Assembly: GCA_048213135.1 (NCBI GenBank) | Contig: PS015082.1 | Coordinates: forward strand, 292,344 to 324,964 | Reading direction: 5' to 3' | Source: Reclinomonas americana ATCC 50394 | Lineage: Eukaryota | DNA length: 32,621 nt | Part shown: piece by piece, positions 1-31,400 of the stretch | Layout of the letters: each line of letters begins with the position of its first letter | Numbering within the stretch: the first letter of the stretch is position 1 | Translations under genes and position numbers: made by a program | The notes under the pieces: model-generated | Seen by the model: the letters and a program-made list of their open reading frames with translations, nothing else | Told to the model about the DNA's origin: nothing | The model's database searches: none

Positions 1-3000
1 GCTGGCCGGTTCCACGCTGCTCACCATTCGCGGCGTCTCCTTCAGCGACAACCGATTCTCCACCGCCAATGAAGTGTGGATTGGCGGCGTGCCGTGCATT
101 CTGCAACAGCAGTACACCTCGAGCACCATGCTGGTGTGCTCGACGCCGGCCTTTGCCGACTCGGTCGACAGCAAACCCCAAGCGGTCACTGTGCGCGTCA
201 ACAAGCAGACGTACGCCACATGCGACGTGACGGGCGGCAGTGCAGCCTGCCTCTTCACCCCACGCTTCCGCGTCACCCCGATCGTGTACGAGATCTATCC
301 GTCGGCGGCGGTGCCTGGCGACACGGTGCAGTTCCGCGCACGCACCTTCACCGACTCACTTGCCGACATTCAGCTGCTGACGCTCGGCGGCGAGCGGTGC
401 CTGCCGGTCAGCGAAACCTCGACGCAATCGTTCCCGCTGCGCTGGGGCTTCAACAGTCGCGACTACTCCTACACGCCACTGTCGGCGCTGCCCGACAACC
501 TCCTGCAGTATGCCGACGCCTCTCCCATGTGCATGACTCCCGATCAGGCGGGTGGCCGTGTGGATGTGGCGCTCGCCATTGCTGGTCGCGGTATGGCGTC
601 GCTGGCCTCCTCGGCCATTCGTTACGGCTCCGGCAATGTCGCCTTTTCGTTTGCATCGGGTTTGTGCACCACCACCTCAGTTACTGTTGATTTCTCTGGC
701 CTCCTGACTTGTTGTGTGTCTCTCTCTCAGTTCCCGAAGTCCGCTCGGTGACACCGGCGACCGGCGGCGACCTCGGCGGCACTCTGCTCACCGTGCAGGG
801 CGTCGGGTTCACGCCGACGGGCGCCAATATGGCCGTCGATGTGTCGGGCTCGCCTTGCGATATTGTCAGCGTCAGTGACACGACGCTGGTGTGCCGCACT
901 GGCGCCGCCTCGCAGATGATCACGTCGATCGAGGGTCGCTACATGTCGGGTCGCGGCTTCCTGCGCGAGGTGTGGACCAACATCCCCGGCAAGTCGGTGG
1001 CCGACTTGCGCGCAGCAGCCTCCTTCGTTGCCGGCACTCCCAACGCTGTCGAATACGTTCTCGATCAGCTGCGCGCGGAGCCGCGTATCGATGCCACCGA
1101 CAACAAGAATTACGGCCAGCGTATGACAGGGTTCTTCACGAGCCAGGCCACCGGCTTGCACCAGTTCATTCTCACCGGCGACGACAGTGCCGAGTTGTGG
1201 ATGAATGTGCAGGGTGCGTCGCCGTCGGGTGCCACGCTGGTGGCCTCGTTGACGGCGCCGGCCATCAGTCCGTGGGATCGTACCGACCAGGCATCGCAGC
1301 CGATTCAGCTCGTTGCCGGGCAGCGGTACTGGATGCAGGTGTTGCACAAGCAGGATGCCAATGGCGACGGTTTCGTCCGCGTGCTTGTGCGCACGCCGTC
1401 TAGCGTGCAGCTGCCGCGCAGTATCGCTGCCGTGCAGGAGGTCGCGCTCACCACGACGGTGGTGCGCGAGGTGCAGACGGTGACTGCCACGGGCGCGTCT
1501 GGCGGCACCTTCCAGCTGGCTCAGAACGACAANNNNNNNNNNNNNNNNNNNNNNNNNNNNNNNNNNNNNNNNNNNNNNNNNNNNNNNNNNNNNNNNNNNN
1601 NNNNNNNNNNNNNNNNNNNNNNNNNNNNNNNNNNNNNNNNNNNNNNNNNNNNNNNNNNNNNNNNNNNNNNNNNNNNNNNNNNNNNNNNNNNNNNNGCCAC
1701 TGGCATTGAATGCAATCGGTCCCGACTCTGCATCAAGGCACGCGCACGTGAGATAGGCGGTCTCTCTTTCCTGTGGCATGCACAACAGCTAGCTCGCAAC
1801 TCNNNNNNNNNNNNNNNNNNNNNNNNNNNNNNNNNNNNNNNNNNNNNNNNNNNNNNNNNNNNNNNNNNNNNNNNNNNNNNNNNNNNNNNNNNNNNNNNNN
1901 NNNNNNNNNNNNNNNNNNNNNNNNNNNNNNNNNNNNNNNNNNNNNNNNNNNNNNNNNNNNNNNNNNNNNNNNNNNNNNNNNNNNNNNNNNNNNACCGACG
2001 TGAAGACTGTGCTGGAGCGCGACTTCCCCGAGCTCGGCACGGTGTCGGTCGACAAGGACACCACCTCCACACCCGGTTCCACCCTGTGGACCATCACTTT
2101 CGAGGATCCACTGCCGCTGAACCTGCAAGAGCGAGCCATCTTCTCTCCCGTCACTGCCTCCCTCCTGCCGGCGCAAGCCACGGTGGGCGTGGTGCGCAAC
2201 CGCCCGCCCTCCGCCCCCCTCGGTGGCACCTGGTCACTGACGTTTGCCGGACGCACGCTGTCGGGACTGGCGCCAGGCGTCTCGGCCGCCATGCTCGAGG
2301 TGCAACTGGAACAATTCTACGCCGCCGATGTTGCATACAACGTGTCGGTGTCGCGCATCGGAAACGGTCTCGACAGTGCCACCTTCCGCATCACCTTCAA
2401 CAACCTCACCGGCACCGTGCCACTCGTTGCCGTCACAAGCTCCCGTCTGACTGGTACCGACGCGGTGGGCGTGTCGCGCCCTGTCGTGTCGGCGTCGACC
2501 GACACGCTGACCACAATCAACGGTGATTTCATGGAGCTGGCGTACCAGGTGCCCAGTGTGCGTGTCCGCGTCAATGGCGTTCTCGGCGCCTGCCGCGGCT
2601 CCGCCAACTGCGCCTTCACGTACGACGCTGCTTTGACTCCACGAGTGGATCTCGTCCTCGGCAGCGATTCGGGAGCTGGTCAGGTCAGTCGGGAGAGAGA
2701 GAGAGAGAGCGCGCAAGTACTCGCTTTCGCACAAAATCTCATCGTCGTCCCCCTTCACACAGTTGCTTGTTATTCGTGGCAACTTCAGTGCCCGACCCGC
2801 CGACAACCGCGTGGTCATTGATGGTGTCGACTGCGCCATGTCGTCGTCGACAGCCACCGAGCTGCAGTGCACCACGGTGCAGTCGGGCGGTGGTCGGCAT
2901 CTGATCAAGGTCTACGTGGCTCCATTCGGCCTCGCCTCTGGCCAGTTCTACTTCTCGTTCGCCCCCAGTATCACCTCGGTCAGTCCGTCCGTTGGCGGTA

Positions 3001-6000: not shown

Positions 6001-9000
6001 GGCCAGTGATCGTGGCGTGGCTCCCTTTGGCAACAAGGCGATTGGCGTGGACTCGGGCATTCTCGAGCTGCACGGCGCAGTTCCACTCATCACCTGGGCG
6101 CCACTCGGATCCTCGGTCGCCGTCGGTGCCACCAGCATCACTCTGGCGAATTCTGTCACGTGGTCGGCCGGCCAGTCCATCGTCATTGCGCCGAGCGGAT
6201 TCGCTAGCACCGAGGCCGAGCAGCGCACCATCACGGCCGTGTCGGCCGACGGGCGCGTCCTCACCTTGGATACGCCGCTGACGTACGCGCATTACGGAGC
6301 CATTGAGGATGTGACTGGCGACGGCAACGCCGCCGGCCAGTTGGACATGCGTGCGGAAGTGGGCTTGCTGTCGCGCAACATTGTCATTCAGGGCGATGTT
6401 GACTCTTCGGAGGCCGACCAGTACGGCGCACATGTCATGTTCATCTCGACGGCCGGCGACAATGGTGCGATTGGTCGCATTGAGGGTGTGGAGCTGCGAC
6501 GAGTGGGTCAGTCGAACGGTACCGGCCGCCATCCGATCTACTTTAACCAGATCGGCGACGTCAGCCAGTCCTACGTGCGCAACTGCTCGATCTACAACAG
6601 CTACAGCCGCGGTCTGGTGATGCAAGCGGTCAACAATCTCTCTGTCGTGAACAATGTGGCCTACAGTTGCGCACTCCTTTTCTCCTTCCCCCCTCCTGTT
6701 CGTCTCCCTCCTCTCACAGCACTCATTGACGCCTCGCACAGACATTCGTGGTCATGCATTCTGTCTGCATGACGGCGCCGAAAGGGGGAACGTCCTCACC
6801 GGCAACTTGGCCATTCGCGTGCGCTCGTCGACCTCGCTGGAGGAGAGCGACTTGCTGGCTTCCGGTTTCTACGTGACCAGCCCGACAAATACGCTCAATT
6901 TCAACGCGGTCGGCGGTGCGGGTGGATTCGGCTTCTGGTACAACCCGCCGGAGAGTCCTCTCGGCCCGTCGTACGTGCCCAACGCCTGCCCCGTCAACGA
7001 TCCGCTTCTGGTTTTCAGCAACAACTCGGCACACTCGTGCGCATGGTCTGGCTTGCGCATCTCGGATCGTTACGATCCGCGCCAGCAACCGTGCATCGGC
7101 GGCAGCTACACCGACAACCCCGCAGTGCCGGCCACCTTCACCTCGTTCACGGCCTACAAGAACCAGCGCAACGGCCTGATGGCCTTCAGCGTCGGCGCCG
7201 CCACCTTTGTGGACTTCCGTGTCGCAGAGAACCGCCTGGCTGGCTTGGAGGTTATTCGCGCCACGGGTCCGGCCGGCTCCACTCGCTTTGTGAACGCCAT
7301 CTCCGTCGGTCTTACCAAGAACGACGTCGGCGGTCACAACGCAGACTTCAACCCGGTGGGCATCCGCACTGCGCAGAGTGAGGGATTCCGTGTTGACGGA
7401 GTGACGTTGGTGAACTGGAGTGCCAGCAATGTGGTGGCGCTTCAGTCGTGTGCGCAGTGCGCCTCCACCGATTTCCGCAGCAACGGCGCCTTCACCACGA
7501 TTTTCACCGGTGTGCGCTGGATCAACACCTCTCGTCGCATCCAGTGGGGTCCACTGCGCAAGGACATCTACAAGAGCGAGGACAACACTCTCATCCCGTC
7601 GGTGCCGCAGGCCACCGTGACGCCCAACTGGCCGCACTTGCGGGTGACGAACTGCACGGTGAATGCCGATCTCGACGACTCCCTGGTGTGCGCCAGCTCG
7701 GTGACGATTCGTCGCATGAGCATGTGGAATCTGCAGCCGTTTGCGGCGCTCAACGGCCAGCCGTTGCTCATCTCACGCAATGGCGACGTGTCAAGCGTTC
7801 CGTTCCAGTCGCAGTCCAACCCCTCCAATGGCTACGCCATTGGCATGGCCATGGGCGAGTCGTACACGGTGGGCTTTGACGGCGCCCTGGACTGGACGTT
7901 CTTCAACATGCGGTTCGACTCGCTGGCCGCCGCCGACACGCTCAAGCTGCGATTGCCTTACAGTGGCTTCCGCACCAACTTGCTGGTCGACACGGACAAC
8001 ATTTTGCGCTCTTCCAGCTCGCAGACCGACGTCGACAAGTCCACGGCCAAGCACGGCGTCTTCTTCCACAACACCGATCAGCGTTACATTGATGTGCGCA
8101 TTTCGGGCACGGGCCCCGGCACGCCGCTTCTCACCATGTACTCGGACCTGTGCCCGACAAGTGTGTGCTCGACGGCGCCGGAGGATGGCTCGCAGGCGGT
8201 GACGCGCCGCTGGAGCAATGTCGGCACGTGGCCCACGGGCACACTGCCGGACACGGAGGACTACGTGCTCATCCCAAGCGGTGAGACCGTTCTGTACGAC
8301 CTGCTGTCATCGCCAGTGTTCGCCACGGTCGAAGTGCGCGGCACGCTCACATTCGACTCGACGTTTGCCACGCTCAACACCAAGCGCATGTGGATCAATG
8401 GCGGCACGGTGAATGTGGGCACGGCGACGGAGCCGTGGCCGTTCCGCGGTGGCATTATGCTGTACGGCACCGAGCAGGGCAATGCCTCGCCGGCCTCGGT
8501 GAATGCCAGCGAAGCTCCAATTCCAGCAAAGACCATTCTCAACGCAGGCACCCTGGCCATTTACGCTCTTCCGCCGAGGTGTGTAATTGCTTCATTTGTT
8601 CACTCGATGTGGTCTCGTCTCCTCAAGCTGCCTCTCTCTCTCTCGCAGCCACTCGTTCTCCAAGTTGGCTCTGGATGCATCGCCAAAGGACAGCGTCATC
8701 CAAGTCGTCGATGCTGTGCAGTGGTTGCCTGGCGACACCATCATTATTGCGTCGTCTGAGCAGGCAGCCGACCAGGCCGAGCGTCGCATGATCATGTCGG
8801 TGGCTAAGGGTGCGGGTGGCGTTACGTCTTTGGCCCTCGATCAACCGTTGCAGTACCGACACCAGGTACGACCCTTCTCTATGAAGCAGGCAAACATTTC
8901 TGCGAGTGACACTCATGATCCATTGTGTATGCAGGGATCGCTTGTGCGCGCAGGCACGGCCAGCATGGATACGCGGGCCGAGGTTGCACTGCTGAAGCGC

Positions 9001-12000
9001 TCGTTCACCATCCAGAACGGTGACAATGCCGACACGGTCCGCTGCAATGTCATCACTCTCGGCGCGGCCACCACCACCCTGTCCAATGTGGCATTGACCG
9101 GCTGCGGCGGTGATCAGCGTCCGGCGTTGCGCTTCCTCGGTGTGTCATCGGCGTCGCAAGTCGTCGGTTCGCTGGTCAATCTGAGCGGCGGCATCGCCCT
9201 GGACATTGAGTCGAGTGCCGGCGTTGTTGTGCGCTCGAGTGTCTTTGCCGGCAGTGTTGGCAGCACGGTGCGCGTCACCGGCCTCGCCAACATTCTCACC
9301 AACAACCTGTCGCTGGGCGCCACGGCACCCACGCCGGCTGCCAACTCGCCTGCGGCTGTGGTGGCTTCGTACGAGATTCTGTCGCCCACCACATTCGCCG
9401 ACAACATTGCCGCCGGTTCCACTGGCATCGGCTACCTGGGTGTCTTCGACTCGTGCACGTCACCGACACCACTGATGGGTGCGGTGACGGTCCATTCGTC
9501 GGCACACGGCGTGTTCGTGTTGCCGACTGATGAGCAGCAGAGCTGCATCGCCGTGCGCAGCGTCAATGCCTTCTCCAACCGCGTGGCTGGCGTGTACGCC
9601 AACGTGCGTGCCAATGTGATTGTCACCGACAGTCGCCTCGTCGGCAACCAGAATGGCGTCGTCCTCATGCACGCCGATCTCGGCGACTCGCGCAACAACA
9701 TGCAAGTGTTGAACACGATTGTGCTCGGCAGGTGAGTGTGTCGTTTGCGCTTGCTTTTCCCTGCCAGACGAAAATCTCCTTGTTTCTAAATCACGGGTTC
9801 TCGCCTTTGCTGCAGTCGCGGACCGACCGAGTGCAACAGCAATGTGGGCATTCGATCGGCGTCGTTCACCAATGGCCTCAAGGTGTGTGTCTCCGTCTCC
9901 GCAAGGTGACTTTGTTTCTCCGTCTCACTCCCTCACTTTGTTTTGCGTGCCCCAAATGAACAGGGTCTTCCGTCGGCCATGCCCGCGCAGACTGAAACAT
10001 GGCTGATGCCGGCCGGCACGGCGGCGATTGACGGCCAGTTCAACCTGAAGGCAGTGACATTTGGCAACTTTTTCGACAGCTCCACGGCCTGCGCCAGCAC
10101 CAGCCGTGCGTTTGCCAACAACAAGTGGGCGCGCGATTCGTTCCACAAGCACACATTTGAGGGCATCACGTGGCTCCCTACTGTTGATGAGGCCGCCAAG
10201 TTCCTGCTGCAGTCCAGTGGCTCGACGTTGCGTGCGACATGACACGACAGGTCTCCGTATGCTGACTCTGCTCACTCGCTGCTTTCCCCGCACTCAGTGG
10301 CGATGCCACGACGGGAGTCGTGTTGTGGGATCTCGATGGCTCGTTGGTGGGCTCTGCCATGTCTACACCCGCCACCAAGGCATTCGTGGTCTCCAACAAC
10401 CCCACGCTGGCGGATGGCCAGCGATGCCAATCAGTTTCGAGTTGGAACGCATTCAAGGTCAGTACCTACCTGATGACGCACAGCGCGTGTTGGCTGACCT
10501 GACCACCTCGATGCAGTGCGCGAATTTGAGCTACGTGCGTGTGCTGTTGCACAACCTGGACTCGGATGGCGAGAGCCNNNNNNNNNNNNNNNNNNNNNNN
10601 NNNNNNNNNNNNNNNNNNNNNNNNNNNNNNNNNNNNNNNNNNNNNNNNNNNNNNNNNNNNNNNNNNNNNNNNNNNNNNNNNNNNNNNNNNNNNNNNNNNN
10701 NNNNNNNNNNNNNNNNNNNNNNNNNNNNNNNNNNNNNNNNNNNNNNNNNNNNNNNNNNNNNNNNNNNNNNNNNNNNNNNNNNNNNNNNNNNNNNNNNNNN
10801 NNNNNNNNNNNNNNNNNNNNNNNNNNNNNNNNNNNNNNNNNNNNNNNNNNNNNNNNNNNNNNNNNNNNNNNNNNNNNNNNNNNNNNNNNNNNNNNNNNNN
10901 NNNNNNNNNNNNNNNNNNNNNNNNNNNNNNNNNNNNNNNNNNNNNNNNNNGAGACGTGCGGCCGCGTCCAAGGACGACGACGCCACTCCAATGTTCATGT
11001 CGATGACAACAGACGGTAGCGCCTGCAGAGCCGTCACCGGTGCGCTGAATGTGGTGACAAATGTGCTCTTCCACGTCGTGGCGTCAAAGCTGTTGGTGCC
11101 ACCGACATCCACCACTGTAGGGCGCGTGCTCTTCCACGGCTGCGCCTTGCCTCCGCTAAACACTCGCACGACCGTCGGCGACGAGTACTGCACAGTGGTC
11201 AGCAGCAGATCGCCCTGCTGCGCATCGCGGAGCGCCAGGCGAAGGTTGGCCGGTGTGGCGCCCGCCAGCGAGAGCTGCAGGTCGCTGCCAGACGGCACCG
11301 TGAACGTGAACATGGGTGCCACAGAGCCGTCGCTCTGCGCCGTGGGACCGGTGACAATGAGCGGCTTCGGATCGCCGCCCGACGGCAGCACCACGGCCAG
11401 CGTGAGCGGTCCAACGACACGNNNNNNNNNNNNNNNNNNNNNNNNNNNNNNNNNNNNNNNNNNNNNNNNNNNNNNNNNNNNNNNNNNNNNNNNNNNNNNN
11501 NNNNNNNNNNNNNNNNNNNNNNNNNNNNNNNNNNNNNNNNNNNNNNNNNNNNNNNNNNNNNNNNNNNNNNNNNNNNNNNNNNNNNNNNNNNNNNNNNNNN
11601 NNNNNNNNNNNNNNNNNNNNNNNNNNNNNNNNNNNNNNNNNNNNNNNNNNNNNNNNNNNNNNNNNNNNNNNNNNNNNNNNNNNNNNNNNNNNNNNNNNNN
11701 NNNNNNNNNNNNNNNNNNNNNNNNNNNNNNNNNNNNNNNNNNNNNNNNNNNNNNNNNNNNNNNNNNNNNNNNNNNNNNNNNNNNNNNNNNNNNNNNNNNN
11801 NNNNNNNNNNNNNNNNNNNNNNNNNNNNNNNNNNNNNNNNNNNNNNNNNNNNNNNNNNNNNNNNNNNNNNNNNNNNNNNNNNNNNNNNNNNNNNNNNNNN
11901 NNNNNNNNNNNNNNNNNNNNNNNNNNNNNNNNNNNNNNNNNNNNNNNNNNNNNNNNNNNNNNNNNNNNNNNNNNNNNNNNNNNNNNNNNNNNNNNNNNNN

Positions 12001-17167: not shown

Positions 17168-17228
<61 letters not shown>

Positions 17229-17577
17229 AGTGAGGATCAATCTTCACATGCGCCTTGTGTGTGTCTGTGACTCACTACTTGCATGCTCACAGGAGGGACC
17301 GTGCGGCGAGGTGTTCATGGACGCCTTCAACTGCTACCGCAACAGCACAGCAGAGGAGAAGGGCAGTGACTGTGGCGAGTTCTTTGGCAAGCTGCGAGTT
17401 GCGTGCACACAGAGACGGAGATCACACGCGCGCGCGGAGTCACTGAGTGTGTGTGTGCGCGCGTAGGTGTGCATGGAGGAGCATCCAGATGCGTTTGCCA
17501 GCTTGCGAGGAGGCGATGAGGAGGAGGAGTATGACGATAGTGATGTGGACGACGCAGTGACGGCGTTGTCACCTTGA
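16173..17577 (+). CDS. MIA40: Mitochondrial intermembrane-space oxidoreductase Mia40/CHCHD4
   Basis: Exons 16173-16406, 17293-17397, 17467-17577 give CPC-IKGVKEGP-CGEVFMDAFNC-YRNSTAEEKGSD-CGEFFGKLRVC-MEEHPD. This is CPC plus twin CX9C with canonical spacing and an acidic tail. Confidence 0.93.
17161..17227. repeat. (GT)n microsatellite in MIA40 intron 1, abutting an assembly gap
   Basis: Near-perfect GT dinucleotide run after the N gap. Confidence 0.95.
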
Positions 17578-17682
17578 TGCATGCTTGTTTGCTATTTGGT
17601 TTTTGTGATCCACACCCGCGTATAGAGGGCGAGTGAGTGAGTGGGGAATACACTACTGTTTGCTTGCTTTTACTCATCGCTA

Positions 17683-18018
17683 TCATCGTGGTCGCTTTGC
17701 CTGTGTGCGCATGCGTCAGCAAAAGGAGTGTGTCGAGTGACAATGAGCGACGCAACGTGCTGTTGAATGCACGTCCATAGTTGCATAAACTCCGCCTCGC
17801 ACGTGTTCTGCTGCAGCTGCTTCATGTTGCTGGTCACACAGGCACCGTATGCACGAGCCTTGCATGCAGTCGCACAGTCAGTCACTCATCTCTCACACAC
17901 TCACAGGCACACATCGCACCTGCACGTGGCACTGTGCAAGTGCGCTGGCCAGTCGATGCGGTTGTCGCACAGACGCAGACTCTGTGGAGAAGAGGCGGGC
18001 CTGCGCGCTGCGACTCAT
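17683..18018 (-). CDS. NDUFAF8: NDUFAF8-like (C17orf89-like) twin-CX9C protein, about 72 aa
   Basis: Exons 18018-17920, 17858-17757, 17700-17683 give MSRSAQ...RLASALAQCHVQARAYGACVTSNMKQLQQNTCEAEFMQLWTCIQQHAKRPR. The C...A.AYG.CV and C..EF..L..C patterns match NDUFAF8. The last exon is less certain; read-through would stop at 17670. Confidence 0.75.
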
Positions 18019-18083
18019 GCGGAAATAGCAAACAGAGTGTGTCCTGCAAGCCCTCTCTCTTTGTTGTTTGTCTGTGTAGTGCA
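18019..18083. promoter_or_regulatory. Putative bidirectional promoter/5'UTR region between the NDUFAF8-like gene and PGGT1B
   Basis: Divergent ATGs only 65 bp apart; inference. Confidence 0.45.
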
Positions 18084-19791
18084 ATGGAGCACGTGCGTGT
18101 GGGCGAAGGAGTCGACTTTGGTGCGTGGTTCGACAAGCCACGCCACCAAAAGTACTTTAGTGGCATCTTGTCGCAGTTGCCCTTCCCGTTCCAGGTGAGC
18201 AATGCACTCACACACAGCACACACAGAGCATGCCAGTGAGGGTGTCCATTGAGAGAGAGAGAGAGAGAACGAGCATGGGGGAGACAGCGAGTGAAATGCT
18301 CAGTGATAGAGCATGCATTCATCATCATCATCATCAATCTCTATCTTTGACGCAGACTCTCGATCCGAATCGACTAATGTTGGTGTACTTTGCGGTGTCG
18401 GGCTTGGATCTGCTGGATGGTCTGCACTTGTGTGATCGGGCGGCGATCACTGAGTGGGTAATGTCGGCATTCGCGGCCGATCCAGTCGTGTTTGAGGGCG
18501 CAGGTGGTTTCCGACCGGGCCCTTTCCTCGGCTTGCCCTTTGCTCCGGTAACTACTGCTGCTGCTGCAGCTGTTGTCGCGTGGGAGAGACGGTTGATTGT
18601 CGATCTCGTGCAGGAGGAGCGACGGAGAGCGGTGCACGACAACTTGCCGCTGGCGCAGTTTGACTCGCCCCACCTGGCCATGACGTACACGGCGTGCTGC
18701 ATTCTGCGCATTCTGCATCAGGGCGCGACGCCGTATGTGCCGCAGTTTGAGCTGGAGCCAGTGCGACGGCTGTTGCGTGCCACGCAGACGGAGAGTGGGA
18801 GGTGAGTGGTTGGTTCGGCGGCGGTATCGGCGATGCGGTGAACTCACTTGCGACGTAGCTTCCGTGGCTACATGGGCTCGACGGAGACGGACATGCGGTT
18901 TTTGTTCTGCGGCAGTGCCATTGCCGCGATGCTCAATCTGTGGGATGCCTACGACAAGGACACAGCAGTGCAGTATGTGCGGAGCAGTCAGGTGCGATTG
19001 CACGCGTGTGACTCGCTTGCTGCGTTCTTTCCTAAATCCCACATCGCAGTCATGGGATCACGGTCTCGGGCAGTCGCCGGGACAGGAGTCACAAGGTGTG
19101 ACGCGATGTGGCGTCTGCTCCTTCCTCTCTTCGCTTTCCTCACGCGCGACATGCACAGGCGGTTCAACGTTTTGCGGCGTGTCATCTCTGGCTCTGATGG
19201 GTCGCCTGGACGACTTCCACAGCCGCGACGAGCTGGTCGACTGGTGCGCGAAGCGGCAAGTGGGCGGCTTCCAGGGTCGTCCCAACAAGGATCCCGGTTG
19301 CGTCCTTGCTTTTTCTGCAACGTGCGCTGCCGAGTTCCCTCGATTGACCGCGGTTGTGCAGACACGTGCTACTCGTTTTGGATCGGGAGCTCGCTGTCGA
19401 TTCTCGATGCCTACGAGTACGTGGATGTGTCGAGTGCAGTGGACTTTGCACGGCAGTGCCAGGACGCTCGGTGAGTGTGCCGACGTCGTTCTCTCTGCTT
19501 TTTTGTCGCTCACAGTGAACCGCCTTTGCGACAGTGGCGGCTTTTCAAAATTCCCCGGCATTCGCGCCGACCCCATGCATGCGTACCTCGGTCTGGCTGG
19601 TCTGTCGTTGATGGGTCATCCAGTTGCGTTGGCTTTCTTGCCTGAGTGCCATTCCCCTCCCCACTCCACGCTCACTCACGTTGCTCAACAACGCGCAGGA
19701 CGTGGCGCGGCTGGATCCGTGCCTCAACATTTCCGTTCGTGCATCGGGTGAGCTGTACACGGCACGCGCAGGCGCTGACGCAGCCGAGTGA
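18084..19791 (+). CDS. PGGT1B: Protein geranylgeranyltransferase type I beta subunit
   Basis: Exons 18084-18194, 18356-18547, 18614-18801, 18859-18991, 19050-19095, 19159-19296, 19362-19470, 19535-19622, 19699-19791. Motifs: HQKYF...LP, LDPNRLMLVYFAVSGLDLL, HLAMTY, ETDMRF, GGSTFC, GFQGRPNKDPDTCYSFW (Zn ligands D and C), GGFSKFP...DPMHAYLGL. Confidence 0.92.
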
Positions 19792-19903
19792 GATCCCACG
19801 CCCCTTGTGTGTGTGTGTGTGATGCCAGTGCGTCCCCGTTCAATACAATGTGTAACGCGGTAGTGGTTGTAGGTAGCAACAAAACAAGTTTTCTTTGTAC
19901 ACT

Positions 19904-22900
19904 TCACTGAGAGTCGTCATCAGCCTGGAAGAGATTGAACAGCAAGTCCACTTGCTGTACGGATGTGGGCGCGGGTGGCGGAGACGTGCCATTCTGGCGG
20001 CTTCCAGAGCGCGCCGTCGTGGGCGACGACATGGTGCGGACCTGCTGCAACATGTGCGACGGTGGTGGTGACGCCGGTGGCAGCGGCGGTACCAGCTGCT
20101 GCTGCTGCGCCAGGCGCCCACCAGCCGGAACTGGTGGCGGTGGCAGCGGTGAGAGAGGCGGGAGCGAGCTGGCTGGGCTGCCAAACATGCGTGGTGTGCC
20201 AGTGGCACTCTCCGCCTCCATCATCACTCGCGGAGTCGAGAGCGGCTCCCACACTGGCGAAGCAATGGAGCGCGACGGTGGCAAGTACGGCAGTGGTGGC
20301 GGCGGCGGCGACTGCATGTCGGCGTGCGACGACAGATCCAGCAGCACGGTCGAAGCCTGCTTGGCGGCTTGTCCGGCTGGCTGCTGCGGCTTCGCCGACG
20401 ACGAGGGCGTGGAGGCGCGAGGTGGTCGGGTGCTCACCAGGCCGCGTTCCGATCCCGTCGTCGTCTCCGTGCAGAGCGAGTCGTTGCAGTTGTCGCTGGC
20501 CAGCGGACCGCGGCGGAACGAGCTGTTGGCCGCTGCAAAGGCCGACTTCTTGTGCAGGGCAGGTGGTGAGCGCGCACGTGCGTCGAGAGGCGACTGCGGT
20601 GGCACCGGAGGTGGGGCCAGCGGAGGCAGTCGGGCGGCGCTGTCGGCGCGACCTGTGCTGCGCACTTGCCACTGGCCCGTATTGTTGTCGTCGTCCGTTT
20701 GCACATTGTCGTGGTCCGTGTCCAGACCATTCTCCGACTCGTCGTGCTGATGGCGCTTCGCGGCCGACTTGGGGTCCGTGGCAATATCCAGCCACGTGTG
20801 GTACGGCTGTGCGTCTCTGAATGCCGGCTGCGCGGCGCTCTCGTCGGGCGCCTCAACGGTGGCGGCGAATTCGTCGTCAGTGTAGGCGTTTGAAGACAGC
20901 TCTCTGTAGCGCTTCTGACGTTGCTGTGCCGGCTGCTTGCGGCGCACCAGGTAGCAAATGACAAACACTGCGATACCTGCATGCACGCACACAAAAATGA
21001 GTTGGATGGACACAGTAGTGGCGGATGTTGCGGTAACGCACCTCCCACAAGGACGCCAACAACGGAGCCGACCACGGCGCCGATAATGGTCGACGAGGAC
21101 GACGGTGTGGTCGGCTGCGCAGCGGAAGAGCCGGCGACTTGTGTCACCGAGTACACGCCGCTGCGGCACACGGTGGCGACCAGCATGCGCGAGGATGCGT
21201 CGAACGCGTTGCGCTGCATGTCGCCAGGGCAGAAGGATTCCGACGCCGTCATGGTCGAGCGTTGGCCCGACAAGCGCGGCGATCCCCAGGCCAGCTTGAA
21301 ATCGGCCTGCAGAGTGGGTGGTCAGCAACTGCGTTGGAGAACAAGTGGTGCATGCTGCCGTGAGTACGCAACGTCGGCCGCAATGCTCTGGTTCTCCAGC
21401 AGCTTCGACACATCCATGGTCAATGTGAGCAGCGGAACAGAGGCGGCAGAGTCGCCGAGCACCACCAACGACTTGTCCGCCAAGATGCCGATCGTCACAT
21501 TCCTAAGGCACACACACAAACAAGCGCATGGGAACACAGAAGTAATGTGAGAATGTCGTTCGAGGAGATTCTCGTACCCGCACGCCACAGAGTCGGCATC
21601 GCGGCATTGCAGACCCGACACATCTGTGCACGCACTGGTTTAGGCGCACAAAACTGTGAGGTACGCATCGAAACCTCTGCCGCCACTCACATTGCAGATC
21701 CACAGGCAGCGGGGACTCATCGGCGTTGCCGACAGTGAGCTCGGTGACTTGCGTGACCACGAAATCGCTCGACGAGACGCCGATCGGAACGATATCGGTC
21801 AGGGTCGAGTCATTGTTGCCGACCATCACTGGCAGGTTGCGCAGCGTCGACGTCACACGATGCCGCGCCGAATCACGAGAGGCTGTGCGCAAGACGACGT
21901 GAGTGTGTGTCGGTTCATCGAGCTTCAACATGCAGCAGAGCACGAACCCGTGACGGCCATGGTGAGACGGCTCCAGGCTGCCGAGCTGGCGAGATCCGCA
22001 GCTGGCATGCGCAACGTGACGTGCTGCGTGGACGATCCACCAGTGAAGGTGCTGGTGGCGTGTGCCGTTGTGTCGTCATCGCTGCACGCATTCACGGTGA
22101 GCAGCTGCAGAGAACTGGTGTTGGGAATGGGTGGAGGGAGAAGGCTCACATGTACAGCTCGTATCGGTAGTCCGTGTCATGTGCGGGTGGAACGAGGAAC
22201 GACACGGTGACATCGCCGCTGTGGTCGGCGCGCACCGACAGCATGTGCGGCTGTGCCGGAACTGTAAAGCACGCAAGCTGTGGATCAGCGACACCGTTGC
22301 TAGCCGGAGAGAAACATGGTGCAAGACATCAAACCAGTCGACTGCAGTGTGCCGGTCAATTCCATCGGGGCGGCTGTGGATCCAGTGGGGATGACGCGCA
22401 GCACGTACGTCACGTCGTCGTCGGAGCCGAGGTAAGGCTCCAGCTGCGCCGATGTCGCAGTGGCCGAGACGACGGCGCGACGAGTGATGCGCCGACCACG
22501 GCTTGTCATCACCAGTTCGACTGTGTATGCCGAAGGAGCTGGCGTAACAGCAGGCCACGAGACCGCCACTCGCGGCACCGAGTCTCCAGACTGATGAGAA
22601 GGAGAGGGTAGCAGCAGTGTTGTTTAGATTTGGATTAACATCGGTGATGGAACAGTCTACGCCAGACGCACCACCACTGAAGCCGACAGCTCTGTCGGCG
22701 TTGGCGTTGGTGTCGGTGTCGGTGTCGGTGTTGGGGTAGGAGTAGGAGTGGGAGTGGGAGTGGGGGTGGGAGTGGGCGTTGGTGTCGGCGTAGGCGTGGG
22801 AGTTGGGTCGCTCGGTGGCACCGGAGCTGCACAGAAAAAAAGGTTAGAACAAGAGCGGCAACAATCGACGGCGGTGCTGTGCAAGTGAAGCGCACCAGGC

Positions 22901-25900
22901 TCGACGGTGATTGCGTGGAACTGCGTCCATGCGACCTTGTTCTCGCTCTTGAAGCACATGGTGTAGGAACCGGCGGTAAGATCGCCAATGGCCAGAGTGA
23001 GATCGTTGACGTTGTTGTCGATGCGACTGGCGGTCAGCAGCTGCGAGTTGGTCGCCGTCGTGCAATCCGTCTCACCCTGAGGCAGGAGGCGGAAAGCAAA
23101 GAATGCACCGAGTGGAGTGCCCAGCCAATTGCCGCGCACAGTAATCGTGTGCACCGGCTTGTTGGCCACCCACGACGACGGAGTTGCCGACACGACAGAC
23201 GGAACTGTGCAAGAATGGCAATGAGTGAGCAAACACCGAATGAGCACAGAAAGCGAGTGTTGTCCGTGGGCGCACCCTTGGAGTCAGTCGATCCCAGGTT
23301 GCGCCACGTGCTGCCAGGTTGCGACTGGTAGCACACCAGGTACTGCGTCTCTCGTGCACTTTCGTCCATCGTTAGTGGCGTGGTCATGGTGACAACGCCA
23401 CTGCCGTCGGTGGCGAAAGACGGAGTCAACAGCGTGGCGCCTGCAGAACTCGCGCCGGTGCACACGGGTGCAATGGCAGCGTCTTGCACCGCCAATAGCG
23501 AGGTGGACGGGATCGACAGTCCGGAGACGGTCAGCGTAAAGTTGAATCCCGGAGCTGTGCGCAGGTGGATTTCAGCACTTTTCGTCACTCACTCACAGCA
23601 AAGTACTCTTGTACACGAACCGAGCAGGGGCGGCGACAAGAGGCAAGGCGAGGCGTCTACCGATCGTGGGCCATCGGGGTCCACAGAGACCACCACTCGT
23701 GAGACAGCGTCGACGAGCAGCACGCTGCCGTCAGGCATGATTGTGAACGACACTGGTTCCACCACTCGGGCCGTGTCGCGCAATCCAGGCACAAACTGAA
23801 TCGCTGACGACGGCACCGATGCGTCGCACACGCCGAGCATCGGCAGCGCAATACCACCATACTGCGGCATCTGCGGGCGGGAGACAAGGGTTGAGTAATT
23901 CCACACAAGAGACACTACACGCTGGTGTGCGACACTCACCTCCAACAGGCAGTGACTGGCAGAGTCGGCCACCAATACTCCACCTGTGCACGCATGCATG
24001 CATGTGGTCAGTCACACAAAACAAGACGTTTGTTTTGCAAGGGGCGTGTGTACCGTTGGCGAGCACGGCGATTGCCGAGAGTTGACCAAAGCCGTCGTTG
24101 GCGTCGCTCTGCGCGTGAAGAGAGGCCTCTATGAGACACAGCCATGCAAAGACAAGCACAATAAACACCCTCATACCGAGTGCGTGCCGTCGGCAAACAC
24201 TGCCACATCGGCGTACGGGGTGCCAGTCGCATCGGTCGAGAAGACTGCTCGAAGCACGCGGTTCGACTCCGCGATAAACAGGGTGGGAGCAAAGCCACCC
24301 TTGAGTGCCACTACAAGCCCCACACAGGTCAGAGTTGTGCTAGAAGCATCAGCACGATGAGATGCAGAGACGCAACATGCTCGGGGTGCGTTGAATGGCG
24401 ACGGTTGTGGGTCGTCGATCTGGGTCAGCGTGCGAACCAGGGCCAGCGGATCTGTCACACTGCCCACGGCGCCGGCAAGCACGTGCACACTGCAACATGC
24501 GCGTGAGAAAATCAACGCATAGCGTACTCGGCTGCATGCTTTCCCCCAAACCTGTTGTTGGCCTGGTCGGCAATCACGAGGCAGTCAGACTGACCCAACA
24601 GACGAGCACCGCCAGACAGCAGCATGTCACTTGGAGACTGCAGGCTGACCAGTGCCGGCAGCGAGACAACCGACGCCTGTGGTGCGTTACTGCCAGTAAC
24701 CGAGATACGCATCACTCGACCGAGGCCCGAATCGAGAACCAGCAGCGCGTCGCCGGCGGGTGTCAGCAGCACACGAGTGGGGCTGTTGAGGTGAAGGAGA
24801 TCGTCGGCAGCCTGCACGCAAGGAAAAGAGGAGTCAAGGTCATTAGTGAGTCTGGCATGCGGGGGGAGCTGCGGAAAGAGGAACAGTCGCACCACAGCTG
24901 CCGTGTTCAGTTGACCGAAAAATACGCGAGGCTGCGCATCTGCCGCCGCCTCCTGAACCCACACGACGTGTCGCGTGCTGTCGGTAATGTACTTGCGGTT
25001 TGCCGAATCCACAGCCACCGAGCTGCACGAAACAGGTCAGAACGCAGTGTGCGAAGACACTGCGCACAGGAAGGAGTGTGACGCAACTGCGGACGACCCA
25101 TGGTCGCAGAGTCGGTGCGGCCGTCGACCAAGGTCTCCATGCGACCGCCGCGTTGCATCATGAATGCCGCACGGACGACACTGCCATCGCTGGGATCGGT
25201 GGACGAAATCGCGACGTGGAAGGCCTTGGCCGCCTGCACATCGGCGGGCATGGAGCACGAGAGCGACAGCTCTTGTGTCGCCTGATCAAAGTCAACATAC
25301 GCCGGCTTGGTGTCGGCGCTGAACTGGAACACGCGATTGTTCTTGTCGGTGGTCGTGACACGCGCAAACACGGCACCGGGAACTGCCGGAAAGCGGCGCT
25401 GGCTCAGCTGCAACAGGTACGGCTCCGAAACTACACACAACGAGCGGGTGAGACAACGCTGACAACGGTGCGAGTCTTCACGCGCGCGCAACTGCCAATG
25501 CTGATCGAGCCGGCGTTGTCGGCCGGCCAGTCGCTCCCGCTGTCTGCCAAACACATGTAGAAACGGCGGCCGACGAGCGAGGAGCCCTCCCACTCGGTTC
25601 CAATCAGAGCATCGTCCGACGGCTGCGGCGAAACGAGAACACATGAGATTGCTGGTCGAAAGCAATCGGATGCGCAAGCAAAAAGAAGACACACCACCGA
25701 CAAAGCGACTGTCAATGACGACATGGCGGCGTCGGTTGTCGCCGGTGTGACAGACGTGACTTGCAGGCTAAAATCCGACTTGTCCGACTGGCAGGCGGCG
25801 TCGCTCTGCATCGTCACGCTCATGGTGCCGGAGGTGAGGCCGAGACCCACCACCGTCAGCTGTACCGTAGTGTTACGGTAGAGCACAGACGGACGGGCCG

Positions 25901-28150
25901 CCAGGCAACCGGCACGTGCCACCAGCGTCGGCCCTGCATTTCTCCGGTGGTGAGTGCACAACATCACCAACGACATATCGACAAGCGCACGCGATGCTAC
26001 CGTCGGGATCAAAAGCAACGACCCTGCGCGCCACTCGATCGACGACGTACACCATGGTGTCGTCGCCGGGGATGACGTATGCACCCGCCGGCTCGCTGAG
26101 AAGGGCGGCATCACTGCAGAGATAATAAATGAGAATCGAGTGCGCACACACAGCGGGTCGCAAACAACTCACCGAGTTCCCTCGGCGAATCCAGCAGTAC
26201 CACACGTGCCCGCAACTGGCCACGGAGAGCCGCCACCGGCTGAGACCTGCAGGCAACGCACGGTGTCAAAAACAAGCACCGAACCCTCGGGACACAGAGA
26301 GGCGTGAGACAAGCACAAACCATGAGGACGCAGTGACTGCCGGCGTCGCTCACTACCACGGCACCTGAACACGGAAACCAGCGCGTCATGTAAGCAAGAG
26401 AAAGAGAGAGAGGGAGGAATCTCGTCCCCCGCATTAAGAATACGAACCAGAGGCCATGATGGCAATGCCAGTGGGATCTGCAATAAAAAATAGAATGATG
26501 AGAATTGAGAAGAGAGCATGAACACGGGGAGAGCGCGCTGCTGGTGTGCACGCACTGTTGAACCCCGAGGCAAACACGTCCGTCTTGGCGTACGCCACAT
26601 CGCCACTGGCCGCAGAGAACACGGTGAAGTACAGACGGTCGCCTTGCGCAAAGTACAGTGTCGGCGACGGTCCTTGGCGCAAAGCCACTGCACACAGCCA
26701 CCCTGGTGTGAGTCACATAGGTAGACACACAGAAAGTCGTGCCAGAAAACGCAACATGAATGCGGTGCCTGCAGCGGCACACTCGGCGTCGAGTCGACCG
26801 TGTTGACCGTACGAATCACGGTCAGCACGCCCGGAATCATCTCACTCATCACATGAATGCTGATCACACGCTCAGTGAGCCGCACCGAGACGAAAACAGA
26901 GAGACAAGGAAAGAGAAGGAATGCTCACCAGTTGGCCCCGTGGTCGGCCACAATGACACAGTGCTGCGCACCAAAGGGACGCGATGTCTCGTCGCACAGC
27001 ACGAGATCGGAGGGATCCACCAGCACCACCGGCTTGCGATCGTTGCCCTCGATAGACAAGACGGTCCACGAGGTGGCCCGCACGTCGTTGACACGAACAC
27101 GAATGATGCGCTTGTTGCCGTTCTCCAACACGTACAGATCGCTAGTGGCCGCAGCGTACGCCACACTCACAGGAGCGCGCAGCGGAATCATCTGCCCGCC
27201 ACTCAGCTGCGAGTCCACACCAACGCCCGGCGTGTCGGGAATGCCAAGCAGCGAAGTGAACGAAATGGCATTGGTGTTGCTCGCCGAGCGCGCCCACACC
27301 ACATGCCGTCCCGCATCGGCCACAAACATGCGATGATCGCTTGCCCCCGCCATCACAATGCTGCGCGGATCACTAAACAACGAGTATCCGTGCGTGTCCA
27401 CCACACCAGCCACCTGTGCGACACGCAAAGAGTGAGCGATTGAGTGACTCGCCAGGCACATAAGAAAAGCACAAGAGGATCACCGTCGTCAGCATGCCAC
27501 CTGGTGAACGACAAACAGTGAGCACGTGATCATCACAGAAATCTGCACTCGACATGCATGACGCACCTCGCGACATGGAAAACGTGCCAATAGCCGCCTC
27601 GCCGCCACTGTTGGTGGCGTGAATCTCCACCAGAAGCGGATCCGGCACTGTGTAGGTGTCGCCACTGCTGCCGACAATCTTCTCATCGACCGCGGAATCA
27701 CACCGAAGCTGCAGCAGCGCTTGACCTGCGCTGACATGCGGATCGTCTGCGCGTAGCTCGAAACGCTTCGCATCACGACCGCCCAGCTACAATGCACACA
27801 TGTGAGAGGGAGAGTGGAAAGAGAGAGTGCGTGTGTGCGTTCGCAGAGAGGCAGACCTCAATAGAGGTCACTGGTGTCTCAGAGGCCACAGTGACGCGAG
27901 CCACCACTGCACCGGGCACCGGTGCATACGAAGAGACACCCTCAGTGTCGCTGGCCGAGCGCAGAATCACGCTGAGTGGGGCGGCCTCTGCGCGGAAGAC
28001 AGGACAAAATTCATCGGACTGTCGGCTTACGTTCGTGCACCGCACGAGCTTGGTCTCACCGGCAATCACTAGTGCGCACAAGAGCCACACTGACAGCACC
28101 GAGCAGCACACCAGTCGGAGCGACGCTTGGTGGTGGGAGTGGCGTCGCAT
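19904..28150 (-). CDS. Large type I membrane protein: signal peptide, 2x (cadherin-like + NHL-repeat propeller + Ig-like), PT repeat, further beta-sandwich domains, TM, Pro-rich tail
   Basis: Signal peptide MRRH...LVCCSVLSVWLLCALVIAEA. NHL repeats include RMFVADAGRHVVW, PVSVAY...LYVLENGNKRI, PHSVAVDSANRKYITDSTRHVVW, SPTRVLLTPAGDALLVLDSGLGRV and PAGAYVIPGDDTMVYVVDRVARRV. TM is IIGAVVGSVVGVLVG|GIAVFVICYLV followed by RRK. The stop is at 19904. There are more than 20 introns and not every internal boundary was resolved. Confidence 0.78.
22693..22807 (-). repeat. Coding (Pro-Thr)n linker repeat in the NHL membrane protein
   Basis: PTPTPT... about 19 dipeptides on the minus strand. Confidence 0.93.
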
Positions 28151-28469
28151 TCCGTCCCGAATTTCCTTGATTTGTCCGAACTGCAATCACTGCCACAAAG
28201 CGCGTGGGGCTGTCGGATGCGCTGAGGCTGTGCGGAATCCGATGCCGGAGAGTCGGCGAGTAACGATAGAGGTTAAAAAAGGATGAAGAAAAGGAAAAGA
28301 GCAAAACAATGAACGCGGTGCGCTCGCACAAAATCTCTCGCTGTTCGATCGAAAAATGGCGGGACGAAATTGATTGATCTTCGACCGTTGAACGAGCAAA
28401 GAAAGAAAGATAGAAAAAGTTTTTCTTGTCTCGTGACGGGGAGAGAGTGCGCGACGAAACAGGTGGCAG
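28151..28469. promoter_or_regulatory. AT/purine-rich divergent intergenic region (putative bidirectional promoter)
   Basis: Lower GC with A-tracts (aaaaaaggatgaagaaaaggaaaaga; aaagaaagaaagatagaaaaag) between divergent ATGs at 28150 and 28470. Confidence 0.5.
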
Positions 28470-31400
28470 ATGGCCGACGCCACTGAACTTGATGCCTCCT
28501 CCGCAGTGAGACCACAACCTTTGTCACAACAGCCGCAGCGGTTTCAGAGACCTCTCGCTTGGGCAGTGAGCATCTCGGCTGCTGCGTGTTCGGCCCTCGG
28601 TGCCTTTGCACTCGCCACCAATCACTGGCTGTTGCGTGTCTCGTGCAGTGCTACAGAGAGAGAGGGGGGTGGTGCTGACTGACTGTTGACCGCGGGTGTG
28701 TTGTCGCAACGCAGCACAATTAATTGTTCTGTTGACGACCCGGCATTCGCCACATCGTCGGGCTTGTCTACCGGGTGTGTACGCGCGCGCGTGTGTGTGT
28801 ATGTCCGCTTAACCTGTTTCGCCTGCGTGTGTACTCATGATGTGAGTCGGGTGAGTGCAGCTCAACGTGCATTGCCAGTCGACCGTGCACATCATTTTCG
28901 GTAACCACCGATGCAGCTAAACTGGTGAGCGGCGGCGCCTTCTCTTTGGCGTCTGTTGACCGCGACTGATCATGTGCATGTGTGTGTGTGTGTGCTCTGA
29001 CAGTGTCTGGCTCTGGGGGCTGCGGGAACTGGGCTGATGGGAGCCCTGGCAATTCTGGCAACCATTCACGCCGTATCTGCACGTCGCTGGACCAAAGCGT
29101 GTGGCGTGGTGCGTGTGTGTGTCACGCTGACGCGACCTGACTTGCTGCACTCACGTTGTGCTTGTGTCGGCAGGTGGCGGGCTCGGTGAGTGCCATTCTC
29201 TGGCTGGTGGCGGTGGCCTACTTTACGGCAAAGACGAACCGCGCCTCGACGTGTTCATCCGGTGCCAAGATGGCGTGGGGATACTCGTACATTGTAGCAT
29301 GGTGAGTGGGGGTTGCTTGTCCTCGGTGGTGTGCGGTCACCGGCATCATTATATTCAACGAGGAGTGTACTGTTACATCCGCGCAGGTTGTTTGGCCCCT
29401 TGCTCGGTACATTACCAGCCGTTGGCTCGTGGTGGCTTTTCATGCCAGCCCCCTCGCCTCGCACCTCCAAGGCCAAGTACGCCGTGCAGCCGGCGGCAGC
29501 ACCACGCGATGTCACGCAAGGCTGGGAGGCGACGAATGTAGAGGTGAACGTGGCGCCCGTGTCACCGGACGACGCCAGTCGCAAGAAGAGGAGGCGGAAG
29601 CGCAGCGCCAACGGGACAAGCATTGCTATCGAGAACGACGGCACTGCCTTGGTGCTGTCACCCTCGGGGAAAACAGCACTCACGCCACGACGGCAGGAGC
29701 AAGACGGTGCCTCCACGAAGACCGACTTGGTGAATTTCGTGGCCTCACCCGAGTCGCACAAGTCGTTTGAGGAGGTGCGTCTGCCAAAGACGCACAGCTC
29801 CGCCGGCGTGGAAGATGCTTTTGCAGAGCATCGAGCGCGGTTTGGTCCGAGCGAACTGGCAGCCGAGGCGCCTCGTGTGCCACGGCGTCTGCATTCCCCG
29901 CCACCGCCGAAGCGCGAGGCATCAGAGGGAGGCGATAGCACTGCACGCTCGTCGGCCTCGTCGACGGGCGAGTTGCCCCCGCCTGCACAACTCGACAGCG
30001 ATCCGGCCGATGCCGACGACGATGCGGTGGGTCGACAAGGAGAAGAGGAGCAGGAGAATGTGGAGCAGCAGGAGGAGGAGGGCGGCGTCCAGTTGCAGCA
30101 GCGCATCGACCAGCCACGTTCGTCGCCGTCGTCCATTGCCCCGTCGTCCTTTATGTCACCAACAGGGGGTGCGTCGTCAGTGGCCTCAAGAGCGCAAGCG
30201 GACGGGCGTGCGAGATTCGACGATTCCGTCGCCAAGCCTGCCGGTGGCGCACGGTTACATTCGCCACCGCCACCTCCAAGAGACGCGAGCGACGAAGAGG
30301 ACGAAGACGAAGAAGAAAATGTGGAGAAGCCGGCAGCAGCAGAGGGTCATGCTCGTTTCGGCGGCGACGTAGCCGGTCACGAGAGCCGACATCACCTGAA
30401 ATCACCGCCACCACCACCTGCAGACCAGGCACTGGAGGAGGAGGAGGAGGAGAAGGAAGGAGAGGACGGCGAAGAGGATGCACCGGGTACAGGCGATGCA
30501 GTGGAGGTCGAGTCGCGCGCGGCTTCGCACGCTCACTTTGGCGGTGACATTGTCGGCCACGAGAGCAGGCATCGACTGAAATCCCCACCGCCACCACCCG
30601 CACCGACAGATGAAGAGGAGGAGGAGGAGGAGGACGAAGAGGAACGTGGCGATGTGGAGGAGGATCATGGTGCAGGCGATACAGCATCACATGCGGCTTC
30701 GCACGCTCACTTTGGCGGTGACATTGTCGGCCACGAGAGCAGGCATCGACTGAAATCACCGCCACCACCAGCACCGACAGATGTGGAGGAGGACGACGAC
30801 GCCGAAGAGGAACGTGATGATATGGAGGAGGCACAGGGCACAGGCGATACAGTGGAGGTCACGTCGAATGCGGCTTCGCACGCTCACTTTGGCGGTGACG
30901 TTGCCGGCCACGAGAGCGGGCATCGACTGAAATCTCCACCGCCACCCGCACCGACAGATGCGTCGATGGATGACGAGGAGGAAGGAGCGGGCGAAGAGGA
31001 GGCACAGGGCACAGGCGATGCAGTGGAGGTCGCGTCGCATGCGGCCTCTCACGCTCACTTTGGCGGCGACATTGTCGGCCACGAAAGCAGGCATCGACTG
31101 AAATCACCGCCACCACCAGCACCGACCGAGGACGAGGAGGAGGAGGACGAAAAGGAACGTGGCGGTGTGGAGGAGGATCATGGTGCAGGCGACGCAGCAT
31201 CACATGCGGCTTCACATGCTCACTTTGGCGGCGACATTGTCGGCCATGAGAGCAGGCATCGACTGAAATCACCGCCACCACCAGCACCGACCGAGGACGA
31301 GGAGGAGAAGGAAGAAGACGACAGGGGAACAGGTGACGCTCACCAGGCTCACCAGCCACTTGTGGATGAAGCCGTGCCACTACCAGTCGAGCAGTCGGAG

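Follow-up and report, generated by a model that had tools for sequence, protein, structure and literature searches.

Can an organism read a large share of its 5′ splice sites one nucleotide out of step with the place where they are cut? The question is raised by a stretch of 32,621 nucleotides (nt) from Reclinomonas americana ATCC 50394 (contig PS015082.1, positions 292,344 to 324,964; about 60% G+C outside seven runs of N), hereafter the window. A sequence-only reading of the window had listed 13 introns with a GTTGCG donor and described this donor as a +1-shifted version of the common local donor GTGCG. Our follow-up is based on the sequence of this one window and on distant protein homologs. 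With moderate confidence, we conclude that GTTGCG(T) marks a discrete U2-type GT-AG class of 5′ splice sites, that it serves about one-fifth of the introns, and that it is most likely read in a register shifted by +1.

Introns were placed with an exon chainer, a dynamic programming procedure that scored codons against off-frame triplets and permitted any GT..AG intron of 40-170 nt. The chainer was blind to the donor motif, and its intron bonus came from the 3′ side only (YAG plus a branch motif). Versions without the 3′-signal bonus over-linked genes and gave spurious long introns; the versions with the bonus were used. The final donor-agnostic run (v4) returned 48 introns, eight of them with a GTTGCG donor (6666, 10227, 12605, 19297, 25492, 25087, 24376 and 21372). 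GTTGCG accounts for 35 of the 4085 scorable GT sites (0.9%), against 8 of the 48 agnostic introns (binomial p=8e-9). This count is independent both of the sites chosen by the sequence-only reading and of our own curation.

For curation, all gene regions were read in three frames, which yielded 64 complete GT-AG introns in eight genes, in line with the earlier estimate of roughly 60. No intron was visible in a ninth gene, which occupies 13092-14740 (+). The curated and automatic introns were identical in 35 of the 64 cases (8 of the class and 27 of the 51 others). The remaining 29 were placed by eye and mostly involved short exons or in-frame, stop-free introns, which are invisible to the chainer. 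GTTGCG donors made up 13 of the 64 curated introns (20%), 11 of them reading GTTGCGT, and were present in seven of the eight genes with visible introns. All spliced gene models have open reading frames (ORFs).

Among the 64 donors, the commonest hexamers were GTTGCG (13), GTGAGT (8) and GTGCGT (6). By pentamer, the counts were GTGAG 14, GTGCG 13, GTTGC 13 and GTGTG 5, which bears out the description of GTGCG as a common local donor. Position frequencies taken independently from the 64 donors predicted 0.23 GTTGCG and 0.07 GTTGCGT, while 13 and 11 were seen. A discrete cluster exceeding independent position frequencies, for which the earlier reading had proposed a test, is thus present among the donors of the window. 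The other 51 donors follow G/GTGNGT (the slash marks the splice site), with -1G in 43, +3G in 34, +5G in 45 and +6T in 29; at +4 they carry C in 20, A in 17, T in 13 and G in 1. GTAAG is not represented among the 64 donors. T at +3 and C at +5 are shared by the whole class of 13, and the +5G is missing throughout, again as described earlier. Given the canonical +4 frequencies, C at +5 in 13 of 13 has a probability of 5e-6. GTTGAG and GTTGTG donors were absent from the 64, in contrast to the frequent GTGAG and GTGTG. Outside the class, +3T occurs in six donors (GTT[CT]G.), all of which retain -1G and +5G; therefore, +3T alone is insufficient to define the class. As far as the gene models reach, the GTTGCG sites are real donors that form a separate cluster and lack the -1G preference.

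The distribution of the motif in the window points the same way. The hexamer GTTGCG showed no overall enrichment (37 matches on both strands, 36.3 expected). The heptamer GTTGCGT was present in 12 copies, 11 of which are sites of the sequence-only reading, while only 1 of the 24 GTTGCG sites outside that list has T at +7. The 12 heptamers are without exception in the sense orientation relative to the local gene (two-sided p=0.0005); for GTTGCG[ACG], the counts were 6 in sense, 18 in antisense and 1 in intergenic sequence. A branch-like CT[CGA]A[CT] with YAG 45-100 nt downstream accompanied 9 of the 12 GTTGCGT copies (p=5.6e-6). The same pattern occurred at 8680 of 57,700 positions (15%), and GTTGCG[ACG] was at this background level (3 of 23).

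The 3′ ends of introns are uniform over the window, with a CT[CG]AC-like branch about 14-28 nt before CAG (56 of 64) or TAG (8 of 64). Intron lengths are 46-90 nt, with a single exception of 161 nt. Class introns did not differ in length from the others (Mann-Whitney p=0.69). A CT[CGA]A[CT] branch 14-36 nt from the 3′ end was found in 10 of the 13 class introns and 37 of the 51 others, and AG was preceded by C in 10 class introns and by T in 3, compared with 46 and 5, respectively, for the other introns. By the criteria for U2-type GT-AG introns, then, the class has GT..AG in 13 of 13 and a branch and 3′ end like those of its neighbours. Because length, branch, acceptor and interiors are ordinary, the class represents neither copies of a mobile element nor a second intron type on the 3′ side. 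U12-type introns resemble the class in that a second sharp donor motif stands next to the major one, but the class keeps the CTSAC branch, the CAG end and the length of its neighbours. The U12-type donor and branch consensus has no resemblance to the class, and with branch and 3′ end the same as in neighbouring introns this assignment was rejected.

Retention of the class introns would cause an internal stop in five cases, a frameshift in seven and neither in one (24376; introns are named here by the position of the donor), so that 12 of the 13 must be spliced out for an open frame. Three of them (17398, 19623 and 25087) have no in-frame alternative donor.

Four class donors (6666, 17398, 19297 and 19623) are pinned by protein homology. 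For 6666, 116 fibrocystin-like proteins from an exhaustive search were used: 60 of the 80 flanking pairs of high-scoring segment pairs (HSPs) leave exactly the gap predicted by splicing, and none of the HSPs continues through the intron. The match to the Pfam CEMIP beta-helix profile halts at position 82 just before 6666 and restarts at 82 just after 6741. The Mia40 exon ending at 17397 matches MIA40 chains in PDB (E=7e-7) to six residues beyond the third Cys and covers positions 1-30 of 35 of the CHCH profile. When it is spliced at 17398, the next exon opens with Val-Cys and the last Cys falls two codons past the junction, resulting in the second C-x9-C; retention would bring a stop. The second, short Mia40 exon gave no useful match against PDB. 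At 19297, in the gene for the geranylgeranyltransferase-I beta subunit (PGGT1B), homolog alignments end at ...GRPNK(D)P and restart at DTCYSFW in a different frame, and the Asp codon of D-T-C-Y is rebuilt only by GT at 19297 with AG at 19360-19361. The Mia40 spacing and the PGGT1B PDTCY motif had been put forward earlier as pinning donors, and both did so. At 19623, the alignment with homolog P0003 is gapless over the junction. In large protein collections, all relatives of the proteins encoded in the window are distant, and the closest PGGT1B homolog, from among animals and fungi, has 37% identity. No close relative for an intron comparison was found; a longer search with a 611-amino-acid (aa) exon gave one weak match.

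The exon side of the class donors bears on the register in which they are read. G at -1 was found in 1 of the 13 class donors compared with 43 of the 51 others (Fisher p=4e-7), and the composition of the class at -1 (A5 C4 T3 G1) resembles that of canonical donors at -2 (A20 C13 T11 G7). In the intron, T at +7 in 11 of 13 parallels T at +6 in 29 of the 51 canonical donors. The exon-flank log-likelihood of the class was -48.9 under the shifted model, -70.5 under the canonical or bulged model and -53.0 under base composition, which places the shifted model ahead by 21.6 nats and 4.1 nats, respectively. The two members without +7T (6666 and 25492) both have CA before the donor (2 of 2 versus 2 of 11, p=0.08). 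This flank would extend a shifted helix at these two sites, which is only suggestive. We infer a shifted, not a bulged, register with U1 as the reader. The earlier reading had allowed for both registers; its shifted version agrees with the flank, +7 and likelihood data, and its bulged version does not, as the -1G preference is not retained.

The 5′ end of U1, a small nuclear RNA (snRNA), is the normal reader of the donor. GTTGCGT equals the local GTGCGT with one added T, as noted earlier, and G-G-U-G-C-G-U compared with G-U-U-G-C-G-U has one mismatch. A reader of G/GUGCGU, presumably the U1 5′ end, would be displaced by one nucleotide downstream, relative to the cut, when it binds the class. 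The intron +1 G would take the usual place of the exon -1 G, the +2 U would be the single mismatch, and UGCGU (+3 to +7) would take the usual place of +2 to +6. The cut would stay before the only available GU, set later by U6, U5 and Prp8.

Pairing with U1 was evaluated with a 5′ end modelled without pseudouridines, and 600 random GT sites served for comparison. With the standard U1 5′ end, duplexes of the class ranged from -2.8 to +0.5 kcal/mol (mean -0.85), compared with means of -2.68 for random GT sites and -6.58 kcal/mol for the other donors. The lowest-energy duplex was in the shifted offset for 9 of the 13, with just 2-4 pairs and -1.6 to +0.5 kcal/mol. The sequence-only reading had foreseen neither this very weak pairing with standard U1, predicted in any register, nor the restriction of the class to GCG.

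Several points weigh against a shifted register, or against the class as drawn. As the class duplex is weaker than that of random GT sites, a plain shift on standard U1 is energetically unconvincing. A generic shift would also yield GTTGAG and GTTGTG donors, and their absence has a probability of about 8e-6. The margin of the shifted flank model over background is only 4 nats, and relative to base composition, -1G in 1 of 13 is a lost preference and no significant avoidance. Main weaknesses are the small sample, 64 introns of a single window, and the partly hand-made gene models. Every junction rests on models built from sequence and homologs, with 29 of the 64 placed by hand, and for four class donors (24376, 26755, 28631 and 17756) either an in-frame alternative exists or the gene model is unconfirmed. 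Finally, one GTTGCGT in the window is no main donor. It lies within an exon of PGGT1B (18772..18778, +) and precedes the GTGAGT donor 18802 by 30 nt; homologs align through it. Use of 18772 with the acceptor 18858 would drop 10 conserved codons in frame, and it is therefore a possible alternative donor. We regard it as a candidate for this role, or else as evidence that the heptamer alone is insufficient.

The weak pairing and the GCG restriction could both be explained by a changed reader: a U1 of this lineage, or a second U1 paralogue, with a different 5′ end, for example with G-C replacing pseudouridines 5-6. Such an end would make UGCGU a perfect core, while the extra mismatch of the shift would be tolerated by the GCG version alone. 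We consider such a change unlikely, though it deserves attention. Two points count against a changed reader: few RNA sequences are as conserved in eukaryotes as the U1 5′ end, and a preference for GTGCG and GTGAG donors is also seen in GC-rich algae whose U1 is standard. In its favour, all 13 class donors have C at +5, G is almost missing at canonical +4 (1 of 51), and GTAAG donors do not occur. When all 16 dinucleotides were placed at U1 positions 5-6, the best mean for both groups of donors came from GC: the class, in the shifted register, reached -7.74 kcal/mol and the other donors -8.76, whereas standard U1 gave -0.85 and -6.58. The GC test sequence, however, also lowered the energy of random sites (-5.34 versus -2.68). 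An Rfam search of the window gave no RNA gene, and hence no snRNA gene, at the gathering score or at E<=1. We tentatively propose that the 5′ end of U1 or of a paralogue pairs perfectly with UGCGU, about one-fifth of the introns being bound one nucleotide off the cleavage site; with a reader complementary to UGCGU, we infer, the existence of the class and its confinement to GCG would both be accounted for. U1 variants are expressed in humans, according to the parts of PMC3561869 and PMC10870369 available to us. They share with the present proposal the notion of other donors served by a U1 with a different 5′ end, and are purely a lead here.

In a bulged register, U1 would pair normally at -1, +1 and +2, one U of +2/+3 would bulge, and GCGU would pair as +3 to +6. 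GTTGCGT is exactly GTGCGT plus one T, as this arrangement requires, and PMC4856993 reports the +2/+3 bulge register as validated in human cells (Table 3 there), likewise with an extra U right after GU relative to the consensus. With a bulge, however, C9 of U1 would stay opposite exon -1, and the 84% -1G should persist or, in sites as weak as these, strengthen; the class has lost it, and its exon-flank likelihood is 21.6 nats below that of the shift. Even in human, the +2/+3 register is projected for only 54-68 of 201,541 sites (0.03%; PMC4856993). The shifted register is the best supported and the bulge is disfavoured; we see only a small chance for it.

Another possibility is that U1 pairing does not matter, or is assisted by protein. 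The heptamer would be read by U6/U5, by another snRNA or by a U1-associated protein of the LUC7 or U1C type. The negligible pairing predicted with standard U1 would fit. So would the information in the class, which is wholly on the intron side, an extreme of the ′right-handed′ LUC7 sites (PMC11842720, as far as its accessible text goes). Those LUC7 sites also fall into two donor classes, by exon-side versus intron-side information, but they have a common register and form a graded series, whereas here a single heptamer is offset by one base. Neither the match of the motif to the local consensus moved by one base nor the +7T mirroring the canonical +6T is accounted for in this way, and we give recognition without U1 pairing little credence.

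Could the class be an artefact, made of chance GT sites picked up by motif-biased modelling, or the tail of a degenerate consensus? The absence of hexamer enrichment in the window, the loose consensus at +3 and +4 and the in-frame alternatives for some donors would be consistent with this. It is contradicted by the motif-blind selection, by the four homology pins, by the sense orientation of all 12 heptamers and by the 13 donors seen where independence predicts 0.23. The earlier reading had named a degenerate motif and base composition as what would refute it; the same results contradict this, and an artefact is very improbable. Mobile, introner-like copies sharing a 5′ end, suggested by the common 7-nt start and the similar lengths (56-84 nt), are hardly credible, since within the window interior local alignments are no better in the class than in others (mean 13.9 versus 13.9, p=0.85) and phases and 3′ ends differ among members.

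Roca and Krainer reportedly described +1 shifted-register 5′ splice sites in human in 2009. Such human sites are presented as an experimentally shown mode in the introduction and section 17 of PMC4856993, and section 18 projects 2.1% of 201,541 human donors for all non-canonical registers together. The human shifted sites and the present class are alike in that all pairs are moved by one, the +1 G stands in the -1 place, +2 is a mismatch, the remaining consensus comes one base later and cleavage is at GU. They differ in that the human sites are rare with an AAGU core, whereas the present class has a GCGU core, comprises 13 of 64 introns and is predicted to pair negligibly with standard U1. A literature search that covered few subscription journals and no supplements gave only primers and unrelated sequences for GTTGCG/GUUGCG and no paper on such donors, and within the same limits no lineage with a shifted register as a major donor class. 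In the portions seen, papers on shifted base-pairing are almost all on human or other mammals, with some on budding yeast, and none reports such a class. Out-of-register sites are known; what is new is best filed as an out-of-register class that consists of a single heptamer, is the commonest donor and matches standard U1 poorly.

The 13 class introns are listed in Table 1.

Table 1. Introns with GTTGCG donors in the window, and the share of such donors in each gene with visible introns.
Intron (nt)	Strand	Donor	Length (nt)	Phase	Gene	GTTGCG donors/introns in gene	Grade
6666..6741	+	GTTGCGC	76	1	TIG/G8/CEMIP-beta-helix (fibrocystin-like)	2/10	solid
10227..10297	+	GTTGCGT	71	2	fibrocystin-like	2/10	solid
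12532..12605	-	GTTGCGT	74	0	gene at 12671, interrupted by N runs	1/2	solid
17398..17466	+	GTTGCGT	69	0	Mia40	1/1	solid
17701..17756	-	GTTGCGT	56		small Cys-rich gene	1/2	probable
19297..19361	+	GTTGCGT	65	1	PGGT1B	2/7	solid
19623..19698	+	GTTGCGT	76	0	PGGT1B	2/7	solid
21307..21372	-	GTTGCGT	66	0	2037-aa NHL-like/transmembrane	5/31	solid
24311..24376	-	GTTGCGT	66	1	2037-aa NHL-like/transmembrane	5/31	probable
25023..25087	-	GTTGCGT	65	2	2037-aa NHL-like/transmembrane	5/31	solid
25431..25492	-	GTTGCGC	62	1	2037-aa NHL-like/transmembrane	5/31	added
26688..26755	-	GTTGCGT	68	1	2037-aa NHL-like/transmembrane	5/31	probable
28631..28714	+	GTTGCGT	84	2	membrane-protein gene at 28470, after first exon	1/5	probable
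	-				gene at 16023	0/6	

Twelve of the 13 donors listed by the sequence-only reading stand, eight of them solid and four probable; 1800 (-) does not, and 25492 was absent from that list. Among the solid donors, 6666, 10227, 21372 and 25087 were selected in every donor-agnostic run. The added donor 25492 was also selected by agnostic runs. If retained, the intron at 10227 brings a stop 13 nt past the donor, that at 21372 an in-frame stop after 48 nt and that at 25492 a stop after 59 nt, while retention at 12605 and 25087 results in a frameshift. Homologs did not pin 10227 (two HSP pairs, 6 and 11 residues off). The exon upstream of 12605, a donor that was picked by v4, is visible for 66 nt only. 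Family searches with the short exons flanking 10227 and 12605 gave nothing useful.

The four probable cases are as follows. The intron at 24376 is in frame and stop-free, so the ORF tolerates its retention; it was picked by v4 and has a CTCTGACC branch, and in our own reading its removal would restore the spacing of an NHL-like repeat motif. At 26755, splicing is required for frame, but the agnostic runs chose the in-frame donor 26782 with the same acceptor; the donor therefore rests on the motif and the normal intron length. The intron at 28631 has an in-frame stop 49 nt past the donor and in-frame alternative donors at 28586 and 28643, and the gene model spliced at 28631 is open to the end of the window. 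For 17756, a CTGAC branch and a CACAG end are present, and the gene model is unconfirmed, its exons having no family match and two frames being open.

The rejected site, 1795..1800 (-), reads GTTGCGA and lies on a 107-nt island between N runs at 1533-1695 and 1803-1993. Both neighbours of the island are high-scoring coding sequence of one gene on the + strand. On that strand, a GTGAGATAG donor is present within the island at 1746, with a pyrimidine-rich tract after it.

Five candidate introns on the - strand, at 15033-15089, 23871-23939, 24311-24376, 24812-24892 and 27988-28059, have a length that is a multiple of 3, no in-frame stop and good splice signals. Judged from sequence alone, these five could be either retained or removed.

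The genes of the window were revised in several places. On the + strand, 1-10576 encodes a fibrocystin-like protein with TIG/IPT, G8 and CEMIP-beta-helix domains, with more than 3100 codons visible and about 10 introns; its neighbours have about one intron per 250-300 nt. What seemed to be two genes at 19906-28150 (-) is one 2037-aa ORF, interrupted by 31 introns, from ATG at 28150 to the stop at 19906. The protein opens with a signal-peptide-like sequence and continues with NHL-like repeats (sub-threshold in Pfam) and a Pro-Thr repeat linker; more extracellular sequence, a single transmembrane helix and a long tail follow. Past the Pro-Thr repeat, the apparent stop sits within an 81-nt GTGCGT intron, 22591-22671. 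The Cys-rich gene at 17680-18018 (-) lies head to head with PGGT1B (18121-18194, +), with almost no spacer; its second exon has two open reading frames, and no family was found for it.

Long Pro-Thr repeats, (ACMCCR)n, occur in three surface-protein genes, at 12163-12204 (-), 13092-13270 (+) and 22690-22800 (-). Several N runs start exactly at a Pro-Thr repeat or at (GT)n (17161-17225); the runs thus have the look of gaps left by the assembly at repeats, and the lengths given for them may be unreal. At 10577-10960, the fibrocystin-like gene (+) and a - strand gene are both open at the edges of a 373-nt N run. Either both genes end inside this run, or the gap is longer than written.

How one U1 small nuclear ribonucleoprotein recognises thousands of differing donors is an open question. 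Shifted and bulged registers have so far been known only as rare exceptions in human. An organism with an out-of-register heptamer as its commonest donor would be a natural experiment that separates the site bound from the site cut and that predicts a specific, checkable state of the U1 5′ end. If the reader of the 5′ splice site has itself changed, U1 would routinely bind out of register with the cut site throughout the genome, and this would be no rare exception. Gene finders trained on donors with +5G would miss or misplace about one-fifth of the introns of such a genome.

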